From Naegleria gruberi (taxonomy: Eukaryota): a stretch of 64,000 nucleotides of DNA. The position numbers were made by a program, and so were the translations under genes. The stretch is from the NCBI GenBank assembly GCA_000004985.1, contig GG738903.1. One strand, written 5' to 3'. This document shows positions 1 to 61,436 of the stretch, piece after piece. The notes below the pieces were generated by a model. That model saw nothing but the letters and a program-made list of their open reading frames with translations, ran no database searches and was not told where the DNA came from. Every line of letters starts with the position of its first letter. Position 1 is the stretch's first letter.

Positions 1-147
1 AATATTTGATCCATTCCAATTCGAAACCCCAATTAAAGCTGTAAAAATTAACTAATTTCAATAAACTGTACTAACAATGAAATTGGATCAGTACTTGATT
101 AATAGCTAATTGGAGCCACCACTTGTTTTATCAACACTTGCAGCAAT

Positions 148-927
148 TTATTCCTTTGCACATTGAAGGTTTTCACACTTTCGTGGGACTCTCTTTTTCA
201 TCTCATTGAAGGAAGATGAGTTTCGATCGATTAAAGGCTCAAAATTAAATGAAGAGTATTCCAAATCGGGTATTACATTATTTTCCTGTAATATTTTGTA
301 AAGTTCCTTATTTGTTCTCCATATAATCTCAATTATCTTGCTTCTACTTTTCATACAAACCTCAAATACAGGATCATGGAGGTTGTCGTCTACTGTAGCT
401 GAACTCTCTGATACATTTCCAGAAATGCAAAATACCACAAACTTGTGCTCTTGATATTCCACAGTATCATATGTGAATTGAATGTTTTCTTTTTGGTAAA
501 TACTTCTGTACACAACAAGCATAAATTGTGGTTGTAATTTTGATGAACATCCCAAGCAAAACCCTTCTTCGTATTTAATATGATTGCTTTCTATAATTGA
601 CGCTTGTTTTTTGGAAATTTTCTTAAATTTGGTATTAGAGGTGTTTACTATTTTGATCCATGTATTTTGTTTCATGTTTGTGAAGTATTCATCGTCATAA
701 TATGTCTCCACTATTTTATATGTTTCCACAAAAGCAAAACCCAAATCAATAACTTTATCCACAACTTCTTTAATGTTTTGTGAGGTAAAGTGGTACTTTA
801 CTTTGATGCTTTTATCTGTCAGGCTTGTTTTACCAGAAAGTAAGAAGTATGGGAATTTGTGAATCAACATAGTCGGAAAGTAAGAAGATTTTGTGATCTC
901 CACCTCTTCTATTTGGTGTAGACTCAT
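148..927 (-). CDS. Hypothetical protein (259 aa ORF); weak resemblance to a CYTH / triphosphate-tunnel-like domain (IEEVE.K near N-terminus, ETYYDDEY motif)
   Basis: Long uninterrupted ORF on minus strand; motif-level resemblance only, recalled from memory of thiamine-triphosphatase/CYTH proteins; start may lie in an upstream exon. Confidence 0.3.
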   Translation of the reverse strand: MSLHQIEEVEITKSSYFPTMLIHKFPYFLLSGKTSLTDKSIKVKYHFTSQNIKEVVDKVIDLGFAFVETYKIVETYYDDEYFTNMKQNTWIKIVNTSNTKFKKISKKQASIIESNHIKYEEGFCLGCSSKLQPQFMLVVYRSIYQKENIQFTYDTVEYQEHKFVVFCISGNVSESSATVDDNLHDPVFEVCMKSRSKIIEIIWRTNKELYKILQENNVIPDLEYSSFNFEPLIDRNSSSFNEMKKRVPRKCENLQCAKE

Positions 928-1331
928 TTTTTTAAATTGAACAACAATTAAGCTACTCGTTGAACTAAAATATTGAGCTGCAAGGGCTGTTCCACCTTGA
1001 TAATGGCGATTAAGACTGGAGCCTGCCTTGGAAGGATCAAAATCTATAGTGAGCAGGTCCCGACCTATTAAAATTGTCTGTAATGTAACTTAACAATTGT
1101 TGAAATAAGGATAAACGTTTCCAAACGCAACAGTTAAGAACTTCTTCTTGTTGGTGTGGCTTTTTTACCTTGTGCAAATTACTTGAAGGAATCGATAAGG
1201 TTATGGGCGAATCATTAACATTGTTTCTCAATATTTAATACTCTTATTCTAAAACTAAAAGAATGCAAAACATTTAATATTAAAACAGATTCACAAAAAG
1301 AGCTTTCCTAATAATCAAACTTTTGAATACT

Positions 1332-2147
1332 TTATTCATCAAAGTAGCGCTCCCAATACAAAACTCGAATGGTTAACTCTTTCCAATTCTTTGAAAAATA
1401 AATTGCACCATCTCCATTTCTGTATTTTGAAAGATCAGTATTTCTCTTGTAAGGAAACATTTCGTATAAATCTCTAATCTCCATAAAAGGTTCTGAACCA
1501 CAAGATTTAAATTCCCAAAATAAATCCGATTCAAAATTACAAAATATAAATCTTTTCGAATTTGGGAAATAATTTGGAGTGTAAATGATTAATTCAGTAG
1601 GTTCTGAATATTGAATGATTGCAAATAAGCAACATAGTGGCATTTCGTCTATTTCTTTCTTATCTTTACTCCCAACACGAACTGTATCATTGAAATAGTC
1701 CAACTTTCGTCCATTTCTTCCAGAAAGAAATCCAATCAACAAGGAAATGAACGCAAATCTCGACAATTCTTCACAATACTCATATTTCTCAACAAATTTT
1801 CCAAATTCATCAGGCAAACGCATGACAATATCCTCCACAGGATTATGATACACTGTAGTTGGTGATTCTTCATCATCATAAACTTTAACGGATTTCATTA
1901 TTGGAAAGTAGAATAATTTTCTGAATAATTGATAATAGAATAAATTTGAAGTCGTTGAATTGTCGTCGAGATCTAGAGAGTCGAAATGGTATTGATGATT
2001 CCTCATGTAAATATTGCAAAATTGTTGCCAAATAGAATTAGTTAAACAAGAAGAATTCCACACGGAAGAAACTAAACGAAAGGGAAGCAAATCTCGAGGA
2101 GGTAAAAATTGAAGAATATTGCATAGCTCGTATGTTGTGGTGAACAT
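1332..2147 (-). CDS. F-box-like domain protein
   Basis: 271 aa ORF; N-terminus LQFLPPRDLLPFRLVSSVWNSSC resembles F-box consensus (LP.E.L..IF..L....L.....VCK.W). Confidence 0.45.
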   Translation of the reverse strand: MFTTTYELCNILQFLPPRDLLPFRLVSSVWNSSCLTNSIWQQFCNIYMRNHQYHFDSLDLDDNSTTSNLFYYQLFRKLFYFPIMKSVKVYDDEESPTTVYHNPVEDIVMRLPDEFGKFVEKYEYCEELSRFAFISLLIGFLSGRNGRKLDYFNDTVRVGSKDKKEIDEMPLCCLFAIIQYSEPTELIIYTPNYFPNSKRFIFCNFESDLFWEFKSCGSEPFMEIRDLYEMFPYKRNTDLSKYRNGDGAIYFSKNWKELTIRVLYWERYFDE

Positions 2148-2154
2148 TTTTTTA

Positions 2155-2230
2155 AATTATGAAATTGATCCTTGACTTTTACAATTTAAATTAACAAATT
2201 ATGAAATTGCTCCTTGACTTTAAATTAACA
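2155..2230. repeat. Imperfect tandem direct repeat (42 nt + 34 nt copy with 8-nt deletion and 1 mismatch)
   Basis: aattatgaaattgatccttgacttttacaatttaaattaaca followed directly by aattatgaaattgctccttgactt-taaattaaca. Confidence 0.6.
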
Positions 2231-2261
2231 TGTTTTACACCCAACACACACAATGAACATG

Positions 2262-2460
2262 TTCATCTTGGTTCCTCTAATGGTCATGAATATCATATCT
2301 TTGATACTGCTGGTAAACCATTCGAAAAGGAATGGATGGAAATGATGTGAATCAAATTCAATAGGTAATGCATGAATTGCCAACAGGTGTAAACTTGTCA
2401 CTTTCTAAATGGATGAATTCAGAAATTGTTACAGAAAATGCAGTTGGATTTGTGTTTTGA
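2262..2460 (+). pseudogene. Fragment (3' end) of an IRG/IIGP-like GTPase, paralogous to the gene at 37212..37962(-)
   Basis: ~90% nucleotide identity by eye to the reverse complement of 37212..37420; encodes HLGSSNGHEYHIFDTAGKPFEK then loses frame (EWMEMM*), downstream part continues in another frame (PTGVNLSLSKWMNSEIV). Confidence 0.6.
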
Positions 2461-3347
2461 GCGTTTCTCTTTTACCCTTAATAGCTTCCATTACAATTTC
2501 CTTGTCATTTCTAATTTCCTCTGAGGCGTATGCAAGTAAACTTGCATGGTTTTTAATTGCTATCATTGCCAACTGTCTGTCATTTCTTAATTCCTTTGAT
2601 ACATGTTTATAAACAATGTCAGCATGTCGGTTAATAGCTTCTGTTACAATTTCTCTGTCACCTCTTAGTTGTTTTGAGGCATATTCAAACATCCATCCAC
2701 ATTTCTTAACTAGTTCCATTACAAGTTCTCTATTATTTTTTATCTCAATAGATGCAAATTCAAAAGCACTCATGTTTTGTTTAATAGCTGCCAATACAAT
2801 TTCTTTGTCTCTTAAATAATGACATACATGTTGAAGTGCAAGGCCATTTTGCTTAACAGCTTCCATTGCTATTTCTTTGTCATGTTTATTAATGTAATTA
2901 TATTTTAGACTCTTTCCATTATTCTTAACGGCAAGAAGTACTATTTCTCTGTTATATTGTAATTGTTTTGATGCATATTGAAGTGGCAAATCCATCAGTC
3001 TGGACTGCTTTCATAATAATTTCTCTATCACTTATCAAATCATCAGGACAATATTTCAAAACATCAACATTGTACTTAATAGCCTCTAAAACAAGTTCTC
3101 TGTCTCTTTTCAGTTCTTCACTAACGTTTTCAAATACTATTATTGGAAATATATTTACAATCATCATGACAATAAACTTGTTATTCCATAAATTCAACAT
3201 TTTCATAACTTTAATAGCCAAATTAAACATTCTATTAGAATTATGTTGGAAGAGTTTTGAAATTAAATAAAAACCATGTTTCTTATAATCAAAGTTGTAA
3301 TGGTCATCACCAACAAGAACAACATCATCTTTCTGACTTTGTAACAC
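2429..3347 (-). CDS. DUF4116-type repeat protein (two overlapping ORFs in different frames, likely one gene with a frameshift or unresolved short intron)
   Basis: Repeated ~30-aa units of the form E(L/I)V(L/M)EA(I/V)K.NG.AL(Q/K)YAS.ELR.D(K/R)EIV; ORFs 2429..2995 and 2952..3347 overlap by 44 nt in different frames. Confidence 0.4.
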
Positions 3348-3479
3348 TTGGTTAATAATTGGCTTGGCAATAGTTTCGTATTTTAGTGATGCATTGGAAC
3401 ATCTCGGATTTTCTTAATTAGCAACGGACTTGCAATAGATTCATCAAGAATAATTTGATGATTGTTTTTACTTATTTTC

Positions 3480-3930
3480 TTCTTCTTGTTTAAAGAGGTA
3501 GCATTTGAATGCCGCATCCTTAATAACGCGTTTTGTTTCTTTTTTAAAAATGGGGATGGAAAATCCGCCATTCCAATCCCAGATTCCTCCACCAACTGGA
3601 TCCACGAATTTAAGCGGTTTTTTGACTTTGAATCCAGCTAACAATCCGTCTGTAAAGTGTGNNNNNNNNNNNNNNNNNNNNNNNNNNNNNNNNNNNNNNN
3701 NNNNNNNNNNNAATTGTGAGTTATTTAAATAGTAGATACTTTTTGTTACAAAATCTTAGAGAACATGACTGCTTAGCCCATACAATGATTGTTTTAACAC
3801 ATTCCACAGAGACAAGGTGAGAAGCAATTTGTGGATAAAGTTACAAATGCCTTTCTATTTGCATTCTTGGATAATCCAAAAGATCTTTCCAAAGATTTGA
3901 CACAAGTTGTGGAAGCAAAGATAAATAATT
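3480..3930 (+). pseudogene. Degenerate IRG/IIGP-like GTPase remnant, paralogous to gene at 36387..37058(-); interrupted by an assembly gap
   Basis: 3782..3930 translates to [40 protein letters not shown], which matches C-terminus of 36387..37058 gene (EKQFVDKVTNAVPFAFLDNPKDLSKDLKPQVMEACK); 3560..3660 encodes STNLSGFLTLNPANN resembling the P-loop-proximal SSFINTLLKFFNPNI; no intact ORF. Confidence 0.5.
3662..3711. other. Assembly gap (50 N)
   Basis: Run of n characters. Confidence 1.
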
Positions 3931-3956
3931 AAATGTTGGTTTAATGCAAAAGGAAT

Positions 3957-4029
3957 CGCCCACCGTGGGGGTCGAACCCACGACCACAAGGTTAAGAGCC
4001 TTGCGCTCTACCGACTGAGCTAGACGGGC
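3957..4029 (-). tRNA. tRNA-Lys (anticodon CUU)
   Basis: Reverse complement gcccgtctagctcagtcggtagagcgcaaggctCTTaaccttgtggtcgtgggttcgacccccacggtgggcg folds as cloverleaf with T-loop GGTTCGA; identical to copy at 36227..36299. Confidence 0.9.
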
Positions 4030-4148
4030 TGTTATTGAGTCATTCCTTAATGACGTTAAATTGATTAACGACTTTTCCTTTGTGGCGATTTAATGCTTAG
4101 TTTACCAAAACAATACAAACTGAACTTTTTGACATTAGAATGTTAATT

Positions 4149-6392
4149 TTACATCAAAGATTTCATATCTACACTTTCTATCACAGATTGTAAACCCTCT
4201 AATTGGTTAGCAACACCTGTCAAGTAAGGTCTCATAGTATATTGTTCAGAATAAATCTTTTGCTTTGAAATATCTTGTAAATAATCACTCCAAGCATTAT
4301 CTGTTAAGAAATCCAACTTTTGTAAAAGTGTAGAAACAGCCTTTTCCAAATTATTCAAGTGAGTATCAAAGAGGAGGAAGCATCTCTCGCGCTCCTTCTT
4401 GATTTTATATTCCTTAGAGTGAATGTTTAGCAGAGAAGCTTTGGTTGAATTACTCTTCTTGTCCTTCTCTGCCAACTCTTCATTAAAGGCACAGAATGCA
4501 TAGACATAAGCTCCGTGAAGATAACGTTTTGCTTCCTTTACCTTCTTTAACATTTCATCAATCCAAAACAAGTGCTTATATGGTACATCAGTGTGCATGT
4601 AAATATCTGCTTTGAATTGTTGAATGTTATTCTTCATGTAGTGATTGAATTTTTCACGTTGTAACCACTGTTTGTGTTCATTCATTTTACCCTCATAGTA
4701 AATGTAGTGATGATAAAGATTCTTTTGGTGAATTTCATTTTTGGTTAAATTCATAGAATGCTCAACAACTCTTTCTTTACATGCTTCAAAATTGTGGGTG
4801 CTCCATTTTCCCTAACCAATGTTAAGATTTTCTATTTTTGAAATTACTTACAAAACATAACCAACAGAATTCATGTCTACACATCGAACAACTATTATTT
4901 TGTTAGGATATTTGAAAAATTATAAAACTTACGTCATGTGATTACAACCACCATTCTTTTCAATTGCCTTCTTGCAATTTGGACAGACTTTTGTGTTACC
5001 TTGAATAAATGCAATAGATGCACCTTCTGACATACCGCTCGATTTACCTTTGAAATCACTCACCTGTTGACAAGTGGAAGGGAAGTGAGGTTCCTTACCA
5101 CATTGGAAGCAAAACCTTTCTCCACAATAGCATTTCACATAGTGAATAGGTTCATCAATAGTTTTCTTAATAGCGCATTTACAACGATTTGATGGACATC
5201 TGGTAACCATAAAGTGATCACTCACATAGGTTTCAATTCTGTTCTCAATAAAACGTCTCTTGATTCTTTCATCATTTTTGAAGAATGAAAAGATAAAATC
5301 TTGGGTCAATGCAGCGTTACAATCCATACAATTGATACGTGTTTGTCCTAAACCTGAAGTTTCCTTAATCTTGACTTCTAAATATGATTTCCAGCAAGCA
5401 TTACAGAATGAATGACCACACATTGGACTCTCAGTCATTGGTACATCATCACAGAAACAAGCAGGACAAGTATTGTCATCATCGTTCGTTTGTTTTTCGC
5501 CTATTGGAATACCACATAATTTGAATACATAATTTTCACCCCTTTCCCAGTAATCGTGCGAAATATTTTCACTTCTCCATCTGTACTGTTTCAACATTGT
5601 AAGAACGATTTGATCTTTTTGAGCTCCTGACCATTGAATCAAATCCTTTGTATGTTGAACTTCTTCATCTTGCTCTCTGATAATATCCATTTCATCAATA
5701 AGAACCTTGTAGTCCTTCTTTTTCTTTTTGTATTGTTCCCACAAATATTCCAGAGTTTCTTCTTCCTTTTTCAAATCGAGGAAGAATTTTGGATCCATTG
5801 CTTTTCTTCTCAATTCTGATTGTAAAGTTTGATTGTGCAACTCTTCCTCTGAGTATTCATAGGCATCTGTCACATCAAGTACAATATGTTCATTATCGTC
5901 ATAGTCAAAGAGATTTTCATCATCTTCTGTTGGATCTCTATAAACTTCCTCTTCTTCCTCCTCTTCCTCTTGATATTCTTCATCATCAATTTCAATATCA
6001 CTTCCATAATCATCAATTTCGACATCTTCATCCTCGGCTATATCACTAGTTTCAACCATTGTTTCCTCCAGTTTAGTTTTCTCATCGACATCGACATTGG
6101 AATTGCCAACTACAGAAGATGAAGATTCTTCAATAATTTCCAACATTTCTTCATCATCATTATCCTTTTTACTATTATCATTGGAAATGTCAATAGTTGC
6201 TCCTTCTGATGTTTTTGGTGCCGATTCTTTTATTGCTTTTTCTTCCTCTTCTTCTTGCATCATGATCAAACGACTAATCGTAGCAGTTTCATCCTTTTCT
6301 TCTTGAAGATAAATCTTCAAAATTTCATCGGGAGTTCTCGATGGAAATAAAGAGTGAAGAGACAAGACTTGTCCTCTTACAATTTCTAACAT
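4149..6392 (-). CDS. Ariadne-family RBR (RING-between-RING) E3 ubiquitin ligase; 3 coding exons approx complement(join(4149..4811,4852..4891,4933..6392))
   Basis: Acidic N-terminal region, RING1 (CPACFCDD..CGHSFCNACW), IBR, RING2 start (CPNCKKAIEKNGGCNHMT), 40-nt micro-exon encoding (T)CSMCRHEFCWLCF, then Ariadne C-terminal domain (GKWSTHNFEAC...MNLTKNEIHQ...); GTAAGT donors at both introns. Confidence 0.8.
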
Positions 6393-22371: not shown

Positions 22372-24551
22372 GTGTTGATGCCCATTAAACACTTCTTTAC
22401 ATTAAAGAGATTAGAAAGCATCTTAAAGATCCTTATTAAAAAAAATATGAAGACCAAAGTTGCACCTAATATCAAATACGAAACTGAAAGTGTTTCTAGT
22501 TCTTCGGCTGATGGTATCGATGAATTGAAAACTACCTTTTTCTCTTCCATTAAATTTCTGCTCATAATTTTAATTTCCTTATTAATTTTGATTAGTGTCG
22601 TTTTGCTGTCAGTTATTTGGATCAGCAGTTTTAGTTCAGCAGTTGGTGAGATGAGCAGCAAAGTGAGAAGACAAGAATTTGAAAAGATTGTTTCATTCAC
22701 TCAAAGGATTTTAAATGATGTCATGTTAGTGACAGAATCTGTCAAATCTCAATTATATTCTGATTTTGATTTTGACACCATGATTGAAAAGCACATGTTT
22801 AAAGCCATGAGAGTAGCTCAGAAATATCTACCAAGTGTTACCCAGGGAGTCAATATAGGTGATCCATTTGGAGCCTTTTATGGACTAGCTCACTTTGGGG
22901 ATGAAATTACTTTTTATAATATCACTCCAGGAAAAGATCAGTACTATTACAATTGTCGAAACTTTTACACTAGTGACTATTGTAATAGATCTTCTGAACC
23001 TGATATTGTCTATCCTCCATTCACTTCCAATTTTGTGGCAGAATCTGCTTCAGTCAACCCTGGCAATCCGGTGTTTACAGTTTCGTATGTGGATCCAACC
23101 TTACCGAATTTTGTCTTCCTTACAGCAGTCTCATCTTTCAAACAGGGAAATATCAAGTCAGGTGCCAGTTTTTCATACTTTTTTGGTTATGACATGACCG
23201 TGGCTTCAATTTCTGAATTTTTAGTTGAAATTACAAAAGAAGTGAGTGGCTCATCTTCGTTTATTATAGAAAAGAAGACAGATTTCATTATTGCAAGTGA
23301 CCATCCAGAGGTTGCGGTTGCCACAGTCGATTCTCAAGGAAACGTTCAAAGAAAAACAGCAAACGATTTTGGAGGTGATGTTACCAAAATTGGTAATATT
23401 GTTTATGGAGCTTTTAAATCATTTGATGAATTAACTTGCAATACTGAAAGTGTACTATCAGATGTTAGTAATGTCATTTCGGTTTATAGACTTTGTACTG
23501 AGGAGGGATTGGAATGGGTTCTTGTGTTTAGTGTTCCTCACTGGAATTATATTGGATCGATGGTTATTGCGATAATTTGTGCCATTTTGGGATCAATTCT
23601 GATCGTTTCTATTGGTATGGTAANNNNNNNNNNNNNNNNNNNNNNNNNNNNNNNNNNNNNNNNNNNNNNNNNNNNNNNNNNNNNNNNNNNNNNNNNNNNN
23701 NNNNNNNNNNNNNNNAAATGAATCCAACGATACAGTTACACTCTTGACTGACATTTTTGAAATCATTGGACAAGCAGCCAAAACAAGTTGTGGACAAATT
23801 GGAAAGTTTGAAAATGAAATGGTGACTATTCATTTCAATGCCACAAATGATCAAAATCAACATGAAATGAAAGGTCTACAATTATGTCATGTCCTCCTAT
23901 CCAAGTTAAATGGATACAAGGAAAGAAAATTAAGGAAACATCAATTATTGGAAAAGTATAAGGAATCCTCTCTCATAGAACGATTCAACTTTAGAATAGT
24001 TGCCAATAGTCAATATAATTTGTGTGGAAATTTGGGAACGAAACAAGTGATGACATTTTCAATTCTTGGAAGTACACCTTTCAATTTACAATCAATGATT
24101 GAAACTGCTAAGGAATTGGATGTTCCAATATTAATTTCAGATGATTTGAATGAAAAGGTTGATAATTTATTCCAAACTAGATATGTGGATACGAAAGAAA
24201 TGGTCATTGATCAGTATTACACCTCCCCTGTATCTGATTCGAATTTGTTTAGTATGAGAAGAGTTTATGAATTGGGAGAATCTTCTCAAATTGCGCAAGA
24301 TGAATGGATGTAAGTTATCATGGTTCTTTACTAATTAATTTTCAAATAATTTATTCGAAAGGTATGAGTTGGAAGCTAAGGAAAAGAAGAATCGTTGGAA
24401 CAAGTACAATAATGCATGTGCAATGGTCTTTGAGAATAAATATGGTGACGCTGCAAACATGTTGCGGGATTACATTACAGAACTTTCGAATGCAAAACAA
24501 GATTTGGTAGCTATAAGGTTACTTGAAAATTGTGAAAGACTATGCCAGTAA
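22372..24551 (+). CDS. Receptor-type adenylate/guanylate cyclase-like membrane protein (2 TM helices flanking an extracellular domain; degenerate class III cyclase homology domain); interrupted by assembly gap; last exon 24362..24551
   Basis: TM1 FLLIILISLLILISVVLLSVIWI, ~330-aa extracellular region, TM2 MVIAIICAILGSILIVSIGMV, gap, then CHD-like VTLLTDIFEIIG...RIVANSQYNLCGNLGTKQVMTFSILGSTPFNLQSMIETAKELDVPILISDD (cf. RIGIHSGPV.AGVVG...GDTVNTASRMES); GTAAGT intron before final exon YELEAKEKK... Confidence 0.45.
23624..23715. other. Assembly gap (92 N) inside the cyclase-like gene
   Basis: Run of n characters. Confidence 1.
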
Positions 24552-36168: not shown

Positions 36169-36226
36169 ATAAATACCAGAAAATCCTTAAGAAAATATTT
36201 AAGATCATTAAGGAAAGACTCAACAA

Positions 36227-36299
36227 GCCCGTCTAGCTCAGTCGGTAGAGCGCAAGGCTCTTAACCTTGTGGTCGTGGGTTCGACCCCCACGGTGGGCG
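36227..36299 (+). tRNA. tRNA-Lys (anticodon CUU), second identical copy
   Basis: gcccgtctagctcagtcggtagagcgcaaggctCTTaaccttgtggtcgtgggttcgacccccacggtgggcg. Confidence 0.9.
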
Positions 36300-36386
36300 A
36301 TTCAGTTTTATATTTCTAGTTATTTGTATCTAGATATTCCTTTTACCTTAAACCAATGTTGAACAGAGTTTAATTATTTACATATT

Positions 36387-37058
36387 TTAAAAGAAACCCC
36401 ATGCTTTGAATTGTCTTGAAATTCTTTTGCATGCTTCCATAACTTGTGGTTTCAAATCTTTGGAAAGATCTTTTGGATTATCCAAGAATGCAAATGGAAC
36501 AGCATTTGTAACTTTATCCACAAATTGCTTCTCTGACATTGACTCTGTGAAATGTGTTAAAACAATCATTGGATTGAAAGGAAGCCCCTTTACATCTGTT
36601 TCTTTAACAGCATTTTGGAATTTGACAAATTTTTGTAAAGAAACAGAATTCCATTCACAAGCTCTACAAACAAAAATAACTGCGTCAATTCTATTATCGA
36701 GGTCAATCTTGTTTGTCAAGTAATTTTCCACTAAATTAGTTCCGGTCTTGATTCCTTGCAAGATTAATTTTAAGGTATTCAAGTCGTCTGGATTTTCGAA
36801 TGGTTTACCAGCAGAATCAAACAACAACAAGTTGGCAGACGAAACTGGAACACTTTCGTAAAGTAAGGTACCAACTTCTGCCTTTCTTCCAACATCACAT
36901 GTTTCAACCATGATATTTGGATTGAAAAATTTGAGGAGAGTGTTGATGAAGGATGATTTACCTGAATGTGGATCACCAACCACAAGAATTTTGAGAGGAA
37001 GGTTTGGGAGAGTTGTTAAAGACATTTTTTGTTGAACCAAATTGAAACGTGATGTCAC
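36387..37058 (-). CDS. IRG/IIGP-like (p47 immunity-related-GTPase-like) P-loop GTPase, G-domain only (223 aa)
   Basis: P-loop VVGDPHSGKSSFINTLLKF closely resembles IIGP1 GETGSGKSSFINTLRG (from memory); DxxG LLFDSAGKPF; tandem paralog of next gene. Confidence 0.5.
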   Translation of the reverse strand: MTSRFNLVQQKMSLTTLPNLPLKILVVGDPHSGKSSFINTLLKFFNPNIMVETCDVGRKAEVGTLLYESVPVSSANLLLFDSAGKPFENPDDLNTLKLILQGIKTGTNLVENYLTNKIDLDNRIDAVIFVCRACEWNSVSLQKFVKFQNAVKETDVKGLPFNPMIVLTHFTESMSEKQFVDKVTNAVPFAFLDNPKDLSKDLKPQVMEACKRISRQFKAWGFF

Positions 37059-37211
37059 GTTAAGAATATCTACTCACTGGTATTTATTTTCACGTTTCGA
37101 AAACTTTTTCGATGTGTATTTCATTACATTTTTAAGGAAAGATGCATTAGTTTCAAAGAAAGTTGGGTCAATACTTTTGCTAAAGACATATTTATTCATT
37201 TAATAACTAAT

Positions 37212-37962
37212 CTATCTACGCTTTGTAAGAACCTCTGCACTGACAACAAGGAACACAAATCCAACTACATTTTCTTTAACAATTTCTGAATTCATCCATT
37301 CAGAAAGTGACAAGTTTACACCTGTTGGCAATCCATGAATTAACTTTTGAATTTGATTCACATCATTTCCATCCATTCCCTTTTCGAATGGTTTACCAGC
37401 AGTATCAAAGATGTGATATTCATGACCATTAGAGGAACCGAGATGAACTTTTTCATAGTGAACTGTGCCAACATCTGCCTTTCGTCCAACATCACAACTT
37501 GCAACTTGGATTCGTCTATTGAAATATTTACACAATGTGTTGATTGTTGAGGATTTTCCAGAGTGTTGAGGTCCAAGCACAAGAATGTTGGTAGACTTTT
37601 TGTTAGGATTATATTTCATGTTTTCAACCTCAATTTTTTGTAACATCAAGTCAATGATTTTGTTCTTTTCTGATGGAATGTCAGTTTCCAAGTTGATATG
37701 ATTTTCAAAAAAGAAAATTCTATTTTCATGGATAAGGTTAGACAGAGATTCCTTTAATTCAATTCTTGTTGAGCTGGGGATTTTTTCATGGTTTGTAATA
37801 ATGACCAAAGGTTTTTGTTCTGATAAAGTTGAAATACGAATGTGGAAGAAACTTACTGAGTGATGATTTTTTTTCGAGCCATTGGTAAAGATTTCCAATA
37901 TTAATAACAGCGTCTGTGTCTATGACAATAGATGGACCAAAGAAAAATTCGAACAAACCCAT
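37212..37962 (-). CDS. IRG/IIGP-like P-loop GTPase, tandem paralog; probable 40-nt intron near 5' end (start MGLFEFFFGPS... at 37962)
   Basis: P-loop LVLGPQHSGKSSTINTLCKYF, DxxG IFDTAGKPFEK; ~45-50% identity by eye to 36387..37058 product. Confidence 0.5.
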
Positions 37963-38460
37963 TTTTTTTAAGTTATTCGAATCTTGGTGGAAACGAGTGA
38001 GGTAGAAAAAGTATTGTGATTCTAACTACAAACTGCAAACGTGATGATTTCTATGCAACCTCTCACGTTTCCATTCTATTCGAATCTAATGAAAGAACAA
38101 GAAACGTGAAATCATCACGTTTGCTATTAGAATCACAAATCTCGTTTACAATAAAAACTCAAAAAAAAACGCATGCAGATCTTTCAGACCTTTCTTCAGA
38201 ATTTTCGTGGTTTGTGGAGTAGAAACACAATTCAAAAGACTCAATGCAAACCCTCTTTGGAAATTTTAGAGGACTGCTTTAAGAAAAACCGTAGGTTTCT
38301 TTCATTTTAGATTCAGATACAGTTTCGAATAGAAGAAAAAGTTGTTTTTGTTTCATTTGGAAAGAAAGAAGCCATATTCAGCAATATTCCAGAAAATTAC
38401 TTTCTTTTCGTTCAGAAAGAAACGGATTTCGATCTTATTCATCAAACCATTCACAAGATT

Positions 38461-39102
38461 GTGAAACATCGAAATGACCAAACTATTTCGATTAGAATTT
38501 TAGGTCAACCAACTCATTTGAAAGAGGAAATTCAACAATTGTTCTTGTCATTGTTTAATGTTGTGGAAGATGGTGATAATTCGAGTGACGTTGTCGTGTA
38601 TTTTGTTGAAAACATTGAAACTGTATACGAAACTGTTTCGGATAGTCCAGAAAGAGTTTCTAATGCTTCTGACAATGATCCACAAGAATTATCTCATAAC
38701 TTATTTGATAGGGTCACCAACGAACTAAACTCTGACATTTCCATAACTGGAAATTACAACGAGCACGCAGAACTTTTAAGAAATTGCCTCTCTCGTTTAA
38801 TCAACCCAATTTCAAAGGAGAAGAAACTATTCTTATTTAGTTGGAAGAAAGGTCCTCAATCAACTGTTTTCTTTAGAGATGATGGTTATTTTAGAGAACA
38901 CAAAGATGATCCATTATCGAGGGAGAATTATTGTGTTTTGTTTCTTCCAATGGATAAAGAAAGTTATTGGAGTTTGAAGAGTGAATATTTGAAATTTGTT
39001 CAATCGACTCATCCAAATGTTTCATTCTTTTATGTTGATAGCATTGGGTCTTTTGATGAGCGTCATTTGTCAATTGATTTTATTAAGTGGCTTTCAGGAT
39101 AA
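38461..39102 (+). CDS. Hypothetical protein; 5' end undetermined (no in-frame ATG near ORF start)
   Basis: 213 aa ORF with no recognisable motifs. Confidence 0.3.
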   Translation: MKHRNDQTISIRILGQPTHLKEEIQQLFLSLFNVVEDGDNSSDVVVYFVENIETVYETVSDSPERVSNASDNDPQELSHNLFDRVTNELNSDISITGNYNEHAELLRNCLSRLINPISKEKKLFLFSWKKGPQSTVFFRDDGYFREHKDDPLSRENYCVLFLPMDKESYWSLKSEYLKFVQSTHPNVSFFYVDSIGSFDERHLSIDFIKWLSG

Positions 39103-39642
39103 TCATCTATAAATGGAAATAATTAATACATTCTCCTTTACTAGTCATTCATCATTGTGTTGTTACTTCTAAATATTACTTTGACAGTATTTGGTGAGGA
39201 AATGGATCATTGTGTAGTTACTTCTATTATGTGAGGAAGAAAGTAGGAGAAATTAGTGGATAACACATGAAAGTGAAACCAGAGTTGACACACCATAACG
39301 TATAGTTACCATTAATGTTGTTAATTAGTGAGTACTTTATTGAAATTAATTCATTTTTACAGCTTAGAACATCTCATAAAAGAAGAACTATTTAAAAGAA
39401 AGTTCTGAGCACTACATTGCTTGCTCTCGAAAGATCACTTTCACTTGGATCATTGTTTGATTGACCAAATGTAAGGTTGCCTTCCAATAAACATTTAAAA
39501 CGATCAACTTGCAAATTATCTGAATTGAAATCCCAACCAAAAGGGTCAAATAATGAAATCTTGTCTGTAAGTGGATAATTATTAACTCTATTCGATTGAA
39601 TAGTTTATAATAAGTGAAACAACTTCTAGAAGCTATTAAGAA

Positions 39643-43860: not shown

Positions 43861-44690
43861 TGTTATATATTAGTTAGTTAATAAGAAGTTATTGTTATGT
43901 AATAGTTTACAATAATGGTGTAGTGGTGTGTTGGAGTGAATATTAATTAGTTTAATATTCAATAGATATATAGTACAGAGTAAATATGATACAAGTATGT
44001 GTGTGTTCCCGAAACAATAAAAAGATAGAATGAAAAAACCAATATCGAACACTTCTGATGTTGTTGTTTAGTTTTTTTCTCTTATTGTTTGCTAATGTTT
44101 TAAACAACAGTTAAAAGTTTAAATCCGAGAGATGATGGATTTCAATGGGATTTGGATGGATAACTCTCTAAACCAAGATCTGAGGTAATGGGTTGAATGA
44201 TGGATATTGTATTGATGGAGGATGGTTTAATAATGGGTTGGCTGATAGTGTTGCTAGTGCTGATGATGATGATGTACTGTTTTTGTTGTTGGATTTGGTT
44301 GAAACTGTTCAGAAAGGTCCTGAGATGGCAGTTGTGTGTTGTATTATGATGAGATGTTGAGTTATTGTTTTGTGTTGTTATGCTTGATTTTGTGATGATG
44401 GCAATTGGCATTGGAGAGATACTGAATGTTGATCAATTCCAGTTCATACACAAGAGCATAACAATTGTTGTCATGTTGTTGTTGTGGAAAGGAACGTGTG
44501 TTAGGAGGTTTCGGTAAATTGTTGAAGATTGTTATTGTGGAAAGTCTACTATTTAGAAACAAACATTTCTTGTTAAAACTGAGACAGTTGTAATCATCTC
44601 CTTCCATATGAATGGCAATCTCGCGTTTTTTAAAAAGTGGATGCACCCAACAAATATGGTAAGGAAATTCGTAAGAAAGAAAAAAAGTAG

Positions 44691-44763
44691 TGGAGATGCG
44701 GGGTATCGATCCCCGTACCTCTTCCATGCTAAAGAAGCGCTCTACCATGTGAGCTACATCCCC
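44691..44763 (-). tRNA. tRNA-Ala (anticodon AGC)
   Basis: Reverse complement ggggatgtagctcacatggtagagcgcttctttAGCatggaagaggtacggggatcgataccccgcatctccac; G3:U70 pair present. Confidence 0.85.
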
Positions 44764-61312: not shown

Positions 61313-61430
61313 GGCTACGGCCATATCACGATGAATGCACCTCATCCCGTCCGATTTGAGAAGTTAAGCATCGTCGAGCCACATCAGTACTGAGGTTGGA
61401 GACAACTTGGGAACCTGTGGTGCTGTAGTC
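61313..61430 (+). rRNA. 5S ribosomal RNA gene (dispersed copy)
   Basis: ggctacggccatatcac...cccgtccgat...gttaagc...ggttggagacaacttgggaacctgtggtgctgtagtc with conserved 5S boxes (ACGGCCATA, CCCGTCCGAT, GTTAAGC), terminal helix pairing, followed by TTTTT. Confidence 0.8.
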
Positions 61431-61436
61431 TTTTTG
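61431..61436 (+). terminator. Pol III terminator T-run after 5S gene
   Basis: tttttg immediately 3' of 5S. Confidence 0.6.

Follow-up and report, generated by a model that had tools for sequence, protein, structure and literature searches.

Evidence for an old inverted duplicate of the tRNA-Lys(CUU)-GTPase locus of Naegleria gruberi in which the tRNA gene has stayed intact

A stretch of 64,000 nucleotides of Naegleria gruberi NEG-M DNA from contig GG738903.1, referred to here as the window, carries at its 5' end pieces that resemble a locus of one tRNA gene and two GTPase genes lying 32 kb away, and this raises the question whether the pieces are the remains of a duplicate of that locus and, if so, how the duplicate arose and what is left of it. 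The window is ~33% G+C and has two runs of N, at 3662-3711 and 23624-23715. The intact locus is called copy A (36197-37460), the 5' inverted copy is called copy C (2249-4061), and a further copy on another scaffold is called copy B. In copy A a tRNA-Lys(CUU) gene on the plus strand (36227-36299, or 36197-36299 with a 30-bp common 5' flank; found by ARAGORN, blastn and Rfam) is followed on the minus strand by GTPase 1 (36387-37025, with an open reading frame of 212 amino acids at 36390-37025), which has a single small G-domain, and by GTPase 2 (37212-37962), which codes for 237 amino acids once a 37-nt intron is removed, as judged by conservation of the intron. GTPase 1 is an exact match to NAEGRDRAFT_81437, which is on a 304,373-bp scaffold. 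A preliminary description of the window had claimed that its 5' end repeats, in inverted orientation, the order of elements at 36227-37962. Our analysis supports this, and copy C is most likely a real and old inverted duplicate, made at the DNA level, of the tRNA-Lys(CUU)-GTPase1-GTPase2 locus in which the tRNA gene alone has been kept.

Homology was tested by blastn of positions 1-6000 against the window and by a self-blastn of the whole window at E<1e-6. Three blocks of copy C matched copy A. Positions 2249-2456 matched 37460-37252 in GTPase 2 (93.8% over 209 bp, E 5e-87), 3780-3917 matched 36574-36432 at the C-terminus of GTPase 1 (90.9% over 143 bp, E 4e-51), and 3953-4061 matched 36303-36197, that is, the tRNA gene with its 5' flank (94.5% over 109 bp, E 2e-42). 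Similarity therefore extends well beyond the tRNA gene, and the three blocks are colinear and all inverted, with the tRNA ends of A and C facing inward across a segment of 32.1 kb. Other than these blocks, the self-similarity of the 64-kb window was limited to the paralogy between GTPase 1 and GTPase 2 (68.6%). Since the blocks are the sole such repeats in the window, the signal is unique there and far above chance. The homology takes in the non-coding spacer and the flank of the tRNA gene and the gene order is kept; because the spacer and the flank are homologous, copy C is DNA-based and non-processed. These results, together with the disabled state of the GTPase pieces described next, bear out the proposal in the preliminary description that an inverted segmental duplication was followed by pseudogenization, with a tRNA gene marking its border.

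Both GTPase pieces in copy C are disabled non-processed pseudogene fragments, and both are on the plus strand. The GTPase-2 fragment (2249-2456), delimited by blastn, tblastn in two frames, a three-way alignment and frame translations, corresponds to codons ~155-225 of 237; 500 bp on the 5' side of the gene and its final 11 codons are missing. One base is deleted at ~2329 (GAAAA-GG), an in-frame TAG was placed by eye at ~2362-2364, and a TGA, also in frame, stands where the fragment joins other DNA on the right (~2458-2460). A GTPase 2 piece of ~90% identity had been reported at 2262-2460; the fragment is real, and its extent and identity are corrected to 2249-2456 and 93.8%. The second fragment (3780-3930; MIVLTH..EKQFVDKVTNA..FAFLDNPKDLSKDL), established by blastn, tblastn, three-way alignment and frame translations, is the C-terminal part of GTPase 1. 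A 2-bp deletion shifts its frame into a TGA (~3818), and it has a further 3-bp deletion and a 47-bp deletion ahead of the stop. The frame-disrupted remnant of GTPase 1 was earlier thought to begin at 3480; it is present at 3780-3930, and in 3480-3779 no similarity to GTPase 1 was found either by tblastn with both GTPases or by Smith-Waterman alignment against shuffles.

An assembly gap of 50 N (3662-3711) lies inside the region. The left breakpoint of the GTPase-1 fragment is in sequenced DNA, 69 bp past the right-hand end of the gap, and therefore the truncation of GTPase 1 is not due to the gap. That the fragment runs on to the gap or resumes beyond it was considered and rejected because the similarity was no better than that of shuffles. 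The gap and the near-identical second locus elsewhere in the genome are also what an assembly artefact would call for, in which reads from A, from B or from an alternative haplotype were misplaced near the gap and made a false partial copy. However, copy C is 6-9% divergent from A and from B and has private substitutions and indels, and so its fragments are not misplaced reads of A or B. They are joined to unique DNA in contiguous sequence at 2249, 2457, 3780 and 4061, and those to the left and right of the gap follow one another as in one colinear copy, the contigs on both sides each holding their module fragment in the expected order. We regard an artefact as highly improbable.

The tRNA-Lys(CUU) gene of copy C (3957-4029, minus strand) is intact. 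It was found by ARAGORN and scored 66.4 bits with the Rfam tRNA model against a cut-off of 29, and it is identical at 73/73 positions to the tRNA genes of copies A (36227-36299, plus strand) and B; the earlier statement that an identical tRNA gene lies there on the opposite strand is therefore right. The spacer between the GTPase-1 stop and the tRNA gene is 26 bp in C, 87 bp in A and ~160 bp in B and is partly alignable, and the first two values agree with the spacing of ~30-90 bp reported before. In copy C this spacer, which is the 3' trailer of the tRNA (3931-3956, minus strand), is homologous to the spacer of A and ~60 bp shorter. A TTTT run is found 6-9 nt past the end of the copy-C tRNA, the sequence ATTCCTTTTGC after its 3' end being like an RNA polymerase III terminator, and all three tRNA genes have a TTTT run within 10 nt downstream. 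On the other side, the common 5' flank of the tRNA (4030-4061, minus strand; ..CATTAAGGAAWGACTCAAYAA), which was delimited by the blastn match of 3953-4061 to 36303-36197, marks the outer limit of the homology between A and C. Thus A and C have ~24-32 nt of upstream flank in common, and B is without it. From the length of the branch leading to C (~4.9%, see below) ~3.6 changes are expected in 73 nt whereas none was observed (P ~0.03 by our own Poisson estimate). The lack of any change in the tRNA gene suggests purifying selection or gene conversion, and, as far as can be judged from its sequence, the copy-C gene is probably still a source of tRNA-Lys(CUU). The rest of the remnant appears to have no function.

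How copy C is related to the other copies was seen from the 90% cluster of GTPase 1. Besides the window protein this cluster holds NAEGRDRAFT_64428, which is 97% identical and is encoded on a 665-kb scaffold (copy B), and a metagenome protein encoded on contig L002 (ENA ERZ929261, 3958 bp). Because L002 has the B-type substitutions of NAEGRDRAFT_64428, it was used as the proxy for copy B in the alignments. L002 is 97.5% identical to window positions 39003-36454, and its order is gene X, GTPase 2, GTPase 1 and tRNA-Lys (minus strand), and then tRNA-Asn(GUU) and a PC4/DEK_C gene. Gene X is at 38461-39102 in the neighbourhood of copy A, and past the GTPase side A and B remain alike for 1 kb or more, gene X included. 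They differ by 1.2-2.9%, and the ratio of nonsynonymous to synonymous substitution rates is ~0.7-0.9 for GTPase 1, GTPase 2 and gene X, on very few changes. Copy B has small deletions at the C-terminus of GTPase 1 and a ~130-bp insert before the tRNA gene. The two fragments give 327 ungapped sites for comparison. At 16 of them C departs from a state common to A and B, while B is the odd one out at 2 and A at 3. It follows from this pattern that C split off before the separation of A and B and that the C branch is long, ~4.9%.

Gene X also has a homologue on two overlapping metagenome contigs (L003 and L004) of a distant relative, in which the GTPases are ~50% identical. It lies beside genes of both GTPase types, the order there being G2'(-) X'(-) G1'(+). 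Gene X, GTPase 1 and GTPase 2 form a conserved but rearranged cluster. Since the link of gene X with the GTPases is also present in a distant species, the context of copies A and B is of the ancestral type and that of C is derived. No tRNA gene was found near the L003/L004 cluster; the linkage to tRNA-Lys was seen only in the N. gruberi copies, namely, A, B (L002) and C.

The steps that would lead to copy C can be outlined as follows. An inverted duplication at the DNA level would have covered at least 36197-37460. Afterwards the tRNA gene alone would have been under selection, or it would have been held identical by gene conversion, while the GTPase parts drifted and were broken by deletion and insertion; alternatively, the copy may have been patchy from the outset because of template switching. 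That the unit ends at a tRNA gene may reflect a preference of breakage or repair for such genes. Reportedly, Kellis in 2003 and Gordon in 2009 described tRNA genes as breakpoints of rearrangements and inversions in yeasts. In yeasts, rearrangement breakpoints are flanked by tRNA genes, and the inversions found between species were all so flanked (PMC2817429, Di Rienzi 2009). The homology boundary at the tRNA gene fits these yeast breakpoints (PMC2817429). The outer end of the A/C homology is ~32-45 bp past the tRNA, and the similarity between A and B likewise ends at the tRNA 5' end.

The same arrangement could be read in another way, in which a staggered double-strand break over the tRNA-GTPase unit was followed by inversion of 32 kb and by fill-in that left an inverted unit at both ends. 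Such a model was proposed for inversions in Drosophila. A and C are inverted with respect to each other and bracket the 32.1-kb segment with their tRNA ends inward, and a unit of ~1.3 kb is plausible for a staggered break, and the between-species inversions in yeast, all flanked by tRNA genes (PMC2817429), also speak for it. Against it, copy B, which is on another scaffold, shows that no local inversion is needed for the unit to be duplicated, and the interrupted and truncated state of C requires extra events here too. That 4062-36196 is inverted with respect to the ancestral order is hypothetical. This route is unlikely, and the duplication outlined above remains our preferred explanation.

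With at least three copies, each of which ends at or within ~45 bp of the tRNA-Lys 5' end, and with the flanks of B past the tRNA being unrelated, it was also considered that the cassette is actively copied, either by a mobile element with tRNA-Lys as its target or its cargo or by break-induced replication primed at the tRNA, so that A, B and C would be independent insertions. No open reading frame for a transposase, an integrase or a reverse transcriptase was found, nor were convincing terminal repeats or target-site duplications. Moreover, the DNA common to A and B past the GTPases, 1 kb or more with gene X in it, shows that there is no fixed second end, and the tRNA 5' flank common to A and C shows that the tRNA was copied as part of the unit and did not serve as its primer. 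Active copying is thus very unlikely. A 21-nt inverted pair (81%; 2211-2231 and 4140-4160) that brackets copy C was considered as terminal inverted repeats and was judged to be probably a chance match in AT-rich DNA.

The two GTPase fragments of copy C are separated by DNA that is not from the module. In the place of 677 bp of copy A (37251-36575), copy C has 1323 bp of unrelated DNA, and Smith-Waterman alignments of 3712-3779, 3518-3661 and 2148-2248 with the matching parts of A were no better than those of shuffles. This DNA holds a gene of the DUF4116-repeat family (2429-3517, minus strand; Pfam DUF4116 E 1e-64, alignment and tblastn) that is unrelated to the module. It is colinear with residues 8-296 of a 324-amino acid N. 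gruberi paralogue, P0110, and its frames run -2/-1/-2, which amounts to two frameshifts, one at ~3387 and one at ~2955-2990. The frame of the gene continues out into the GTPase-2 fragment. Positions 3389-3457 align with the N-terminus of the paralogue, so that the 5' end of this minus-strand gene falls in this stretch. An upstream DUF4116 exon at 3400-3661 (minus strand), joined through an intron of ~80 nt reaching into the gap, was rejected because it has no homologues and because the alignment with P0110 and tblastn show the N-terminus in another frame, that is, a frameshift and not an intron. Among 5.8 billion clustered proteins there was no identical or near-identical entry for the DUF4116 gene, the best being 35-46% identical, and the gene is probably an unannotated pseudogene. 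Between its start and the GTPase-1 fragment lies unassigned DNA (3518-3779; N runs, Smith-Waterman) that includes the gap and that has no similarity to copy A against shuffles and no protein homologue.

Several points weigh against an inverted duplication that decayed later. The DUF4116 gene is without a close paralogue (35-46% at best), and so there is no recent insertion from a recognisable source. The gap at 3662-3711 sits in the junction region, so that the sequence linking the DUF4116 gene to the GTPase-1 fragment is incomplete. The DUF4116 DNA may have entered after the duplication, or the copy may have been fragmentary to begin with. In the metagenomes of the Joint Genome Institute a scan with a conserved 24-mer and protein profiles gave neither copy C nor further copies, and that the copy-C tRNA gene is active is something we infer. 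The two inverted repeats, each with a tRNA gene, could still bring about inversion of the 32-kb interval.

The promoters of the module are a further point of difference between the copies. There are 11 matches to the motif AAACGTGA/TCACGTTT in the window where 1.7 would be expected, and six of the 11 AAACGTGA copies are in copy A promoters, at 37045-37097 upstream of GTPase 1 and at 38037-38122 between the divergent gene X and GTPase 2. It is absent from 1-6000, and copy C is without motif clusters. AAACGTGA is a candidate for a shared cis-element. Between gene X and GTPase 2 its copies seem, on inspection by eye, to be arranged as an inverted repeat of 16 nt, CAAACGTGATGATTTC .. GAAATCATCACGTTTG.

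Two other repeats of the window were compared with the duplicated unit. One is a 42/34-nt tandem duplication (2154-2229) with copies starting at 2154 and 2196. The preliminary description, which was correct on its existence, had put it together with the DUF4116 gene in the interval between the GTPase fragments; the DUF4116 gene is there, and the repeat is to the left of both fragments and outside the duplicated module. It is 8-84 nt upstream of the ATG (2147) of an F-box gene (1332-2147, minus strand; F-box by Pfam), is unrelated to the GTPase module and has no other occurrence in the window. The other repeat is a 30-40 bp element, AAGCTGTAAAAATnAAnTAATTTCAATAAA, which occurs exactly twice, at 36-75 (plus strand) and 39328-39365 (minus strand), in inverted orientation and colinear with the duplication. 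Between this element and the GTPase-2 fragment there is no similarity of A and C at the DNA or protein level, and therefore the duplicated unit is not extended to it. The element could serve as a 3'-end signal, or it could be all that remains of a larger duplicate. Also in the window are a 5S rRNA gene (61313-61431, plus strand; Rfam 105 bits) and a tRNA-Ala(AGC) gene (44690-44763, minus strand).

The GTPases had been called IRG-like, and this does not hold. Proteins of the IRG/IIGP family are ~400 amino acids long and have N- and C-terminal helical domains around the G-domain. GTPase 1 scored 24.4 bits with Pfam MMR_HSR1 and 18.4 bits with IIGP (PF05049) against a cut-off of 24, the latter over residues 5-30 (the P-loop) only, and a profile search of the PDB gave P-loop similarity only, with IIGP at E 0.37. 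An AlphaFold2 model with a mean predicted local distance difference test score (pLDDT) of 85 has a single alpha/beta G-domain over the 212 amino acids. When this model was compared with the PDB by Foldseek the best matches were GIMAP2 (E 3.1e-6), GIMAP7 (3.3e-6) and Toc34 (1.4e-5), with template modelling scores of 0.5-0.6; GIMAP2, GIMAP7 and Toc34 took ranks 1-11 and Irga6 (5fph) was at rank 44. Membership of the IRG/IIGP family was therefore rejected, since the Pfam score is below the cut-off, the 212 amino acids have no flanking helical domains and Irga6 is not the closest structure. HMMER searches of 1.84 billion representatives gave 102 relatives of GTPase 1 at E<=1e-3 and 15 at E<=1e-10. 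Against the cut-off of 27 for Pfam AIG1 (PF04548), GTPase 1 gave no match and GTPase 2 scored 14.8 bits, and the relatives P0018 and P0013 scored 26.3 and 24.7 bits. The G4 motif of GTPase 1 is LTHFTE and its relatives show a G4 of the T-H-x-D type. The model and these searches suggest that GTPase 1 is a small, lineage-restricted TRAFAC G-domain like those of GIMAP and Toc34, which would be a better fit than IRG.

The two genes had also been described as a tandem pair, and the second gene appears to be more than a plain paralogue of the first. The first ~95 residues of GTPase 2 (14-95) match the C-terminal half of the family profile, which has G4 and G5 (hhalign probability 95%, E 3.8e-8), and the remainder is the G1-G3 half, which ends just past beta4 and is 46% identical to residues 13-122 of GTPase 1 by tblastn. 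The same order of halves is found in L004 and in P0007. These matches speak for a circular permutation that has been conserved, rather than for decay. In an AlphaFold2 model of exon 2 (pLDDT 63), Foldseek matched the N-terminal half alone, and weakly, to septin, Toc34 and GIMAP. The intron at 37856-37820 is 37 nt long (GTAAGT..CAG); its position is kept in L002 (37 nt) and in L004 (~718-751, 34 nt, GTAAGT..TAG), and its removal restores the reading frame of GTPase 2 in the window, in L002 and in L004. The apparently permuted GTPase 2 gene lies directly upstream of the non-permuted GTPase 1. It is conceivable that tRNA-Lys(CUU) is, in this free-living amoeba, a recurrent anchor at which neighbouring, fast-evolving GIMAP-like GTPases of a lineage-restricted family are born and lost through tRNA-seeded break-induced or template-switch events, and that a tandem duplication there also made the permuted GTPase 2, but we think this quite unlikely.

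By itself the duplication is ordinary, that is, one more decayed segmental duplication and no new kind of element; on segmental duplication in Naegleria nothing relevant was found in the literature. What changes is the annotation, in which 2249-2456 and 3780-3930 are GTPase pseudogene fragments and 2429-3517 is a disabled DUF4116 gene, and in which the tRNA-Lys gene at 3957-4029 should be counted as probably functional. Copy C also adds a non-yeast case of a rearrangement boundary at a tRNA gene, and the 32-kb interval between the inverted repeats may be polymorphic in orientation. The apparent permutation of GTPase 2 is a by-product that is more interesting than the duplication and is the most worth following up, because the GTPase 1/2 pair with its conserved 34-37-nt intron could be a natural case study of the origin of a permuted G-domain.

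Compared with the tRNA breakpoints of yeasts, the locus is alike in that the homology boundary is ~32-45 bp from the tRNA between A and C and at the tRNA between A and B, and in that the copies bracket 32 kb, but Naegleria is a heterolobosean amoeba, no elements of the Ty/long terminal repeat type were seen beside the tRNAs, and the inversion is hypothetical. Compared with the non-processed pseudogenes of segmental duplications, copy C is alike in having spacer and flank, a divergence of 6-9%, frameshifts, stops, deletions and truncations and in having no promoter motifs; it differs in being inverted, 32 kb away and split by ~1.3 kb of foreign DNA with a disabled gene, and in having a perfect tRNA. 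As for the GTPases, the GIMAP/AIG1-Toc34-septin group has the structures closest to the GTPase 1 model, and the relatives of GTPase 1 are near the AIG1 cut-off, whereas GTPase 1 itself has no AIG1 match, is short, has no extra domains, has LTHFTE as its G4 and belongs to a tiny family. It is like IRG/IIGP in the P-loop only and is without the flanking helical domains. The circularly permuted GTPases of the YlqF/YawG/YjeQ type have the motif order G4-G5-G1-G2-G3. GTPase 2 gave neither a Pfam match nor, with the low-confidence exon-2 model, a fold match of this type. It resembles these proteins in that its G4/G5 half precedes its G1-G3 half, and differs from them in that it is of another G-domain lineage and adjoins its own non-permuted paralogue.

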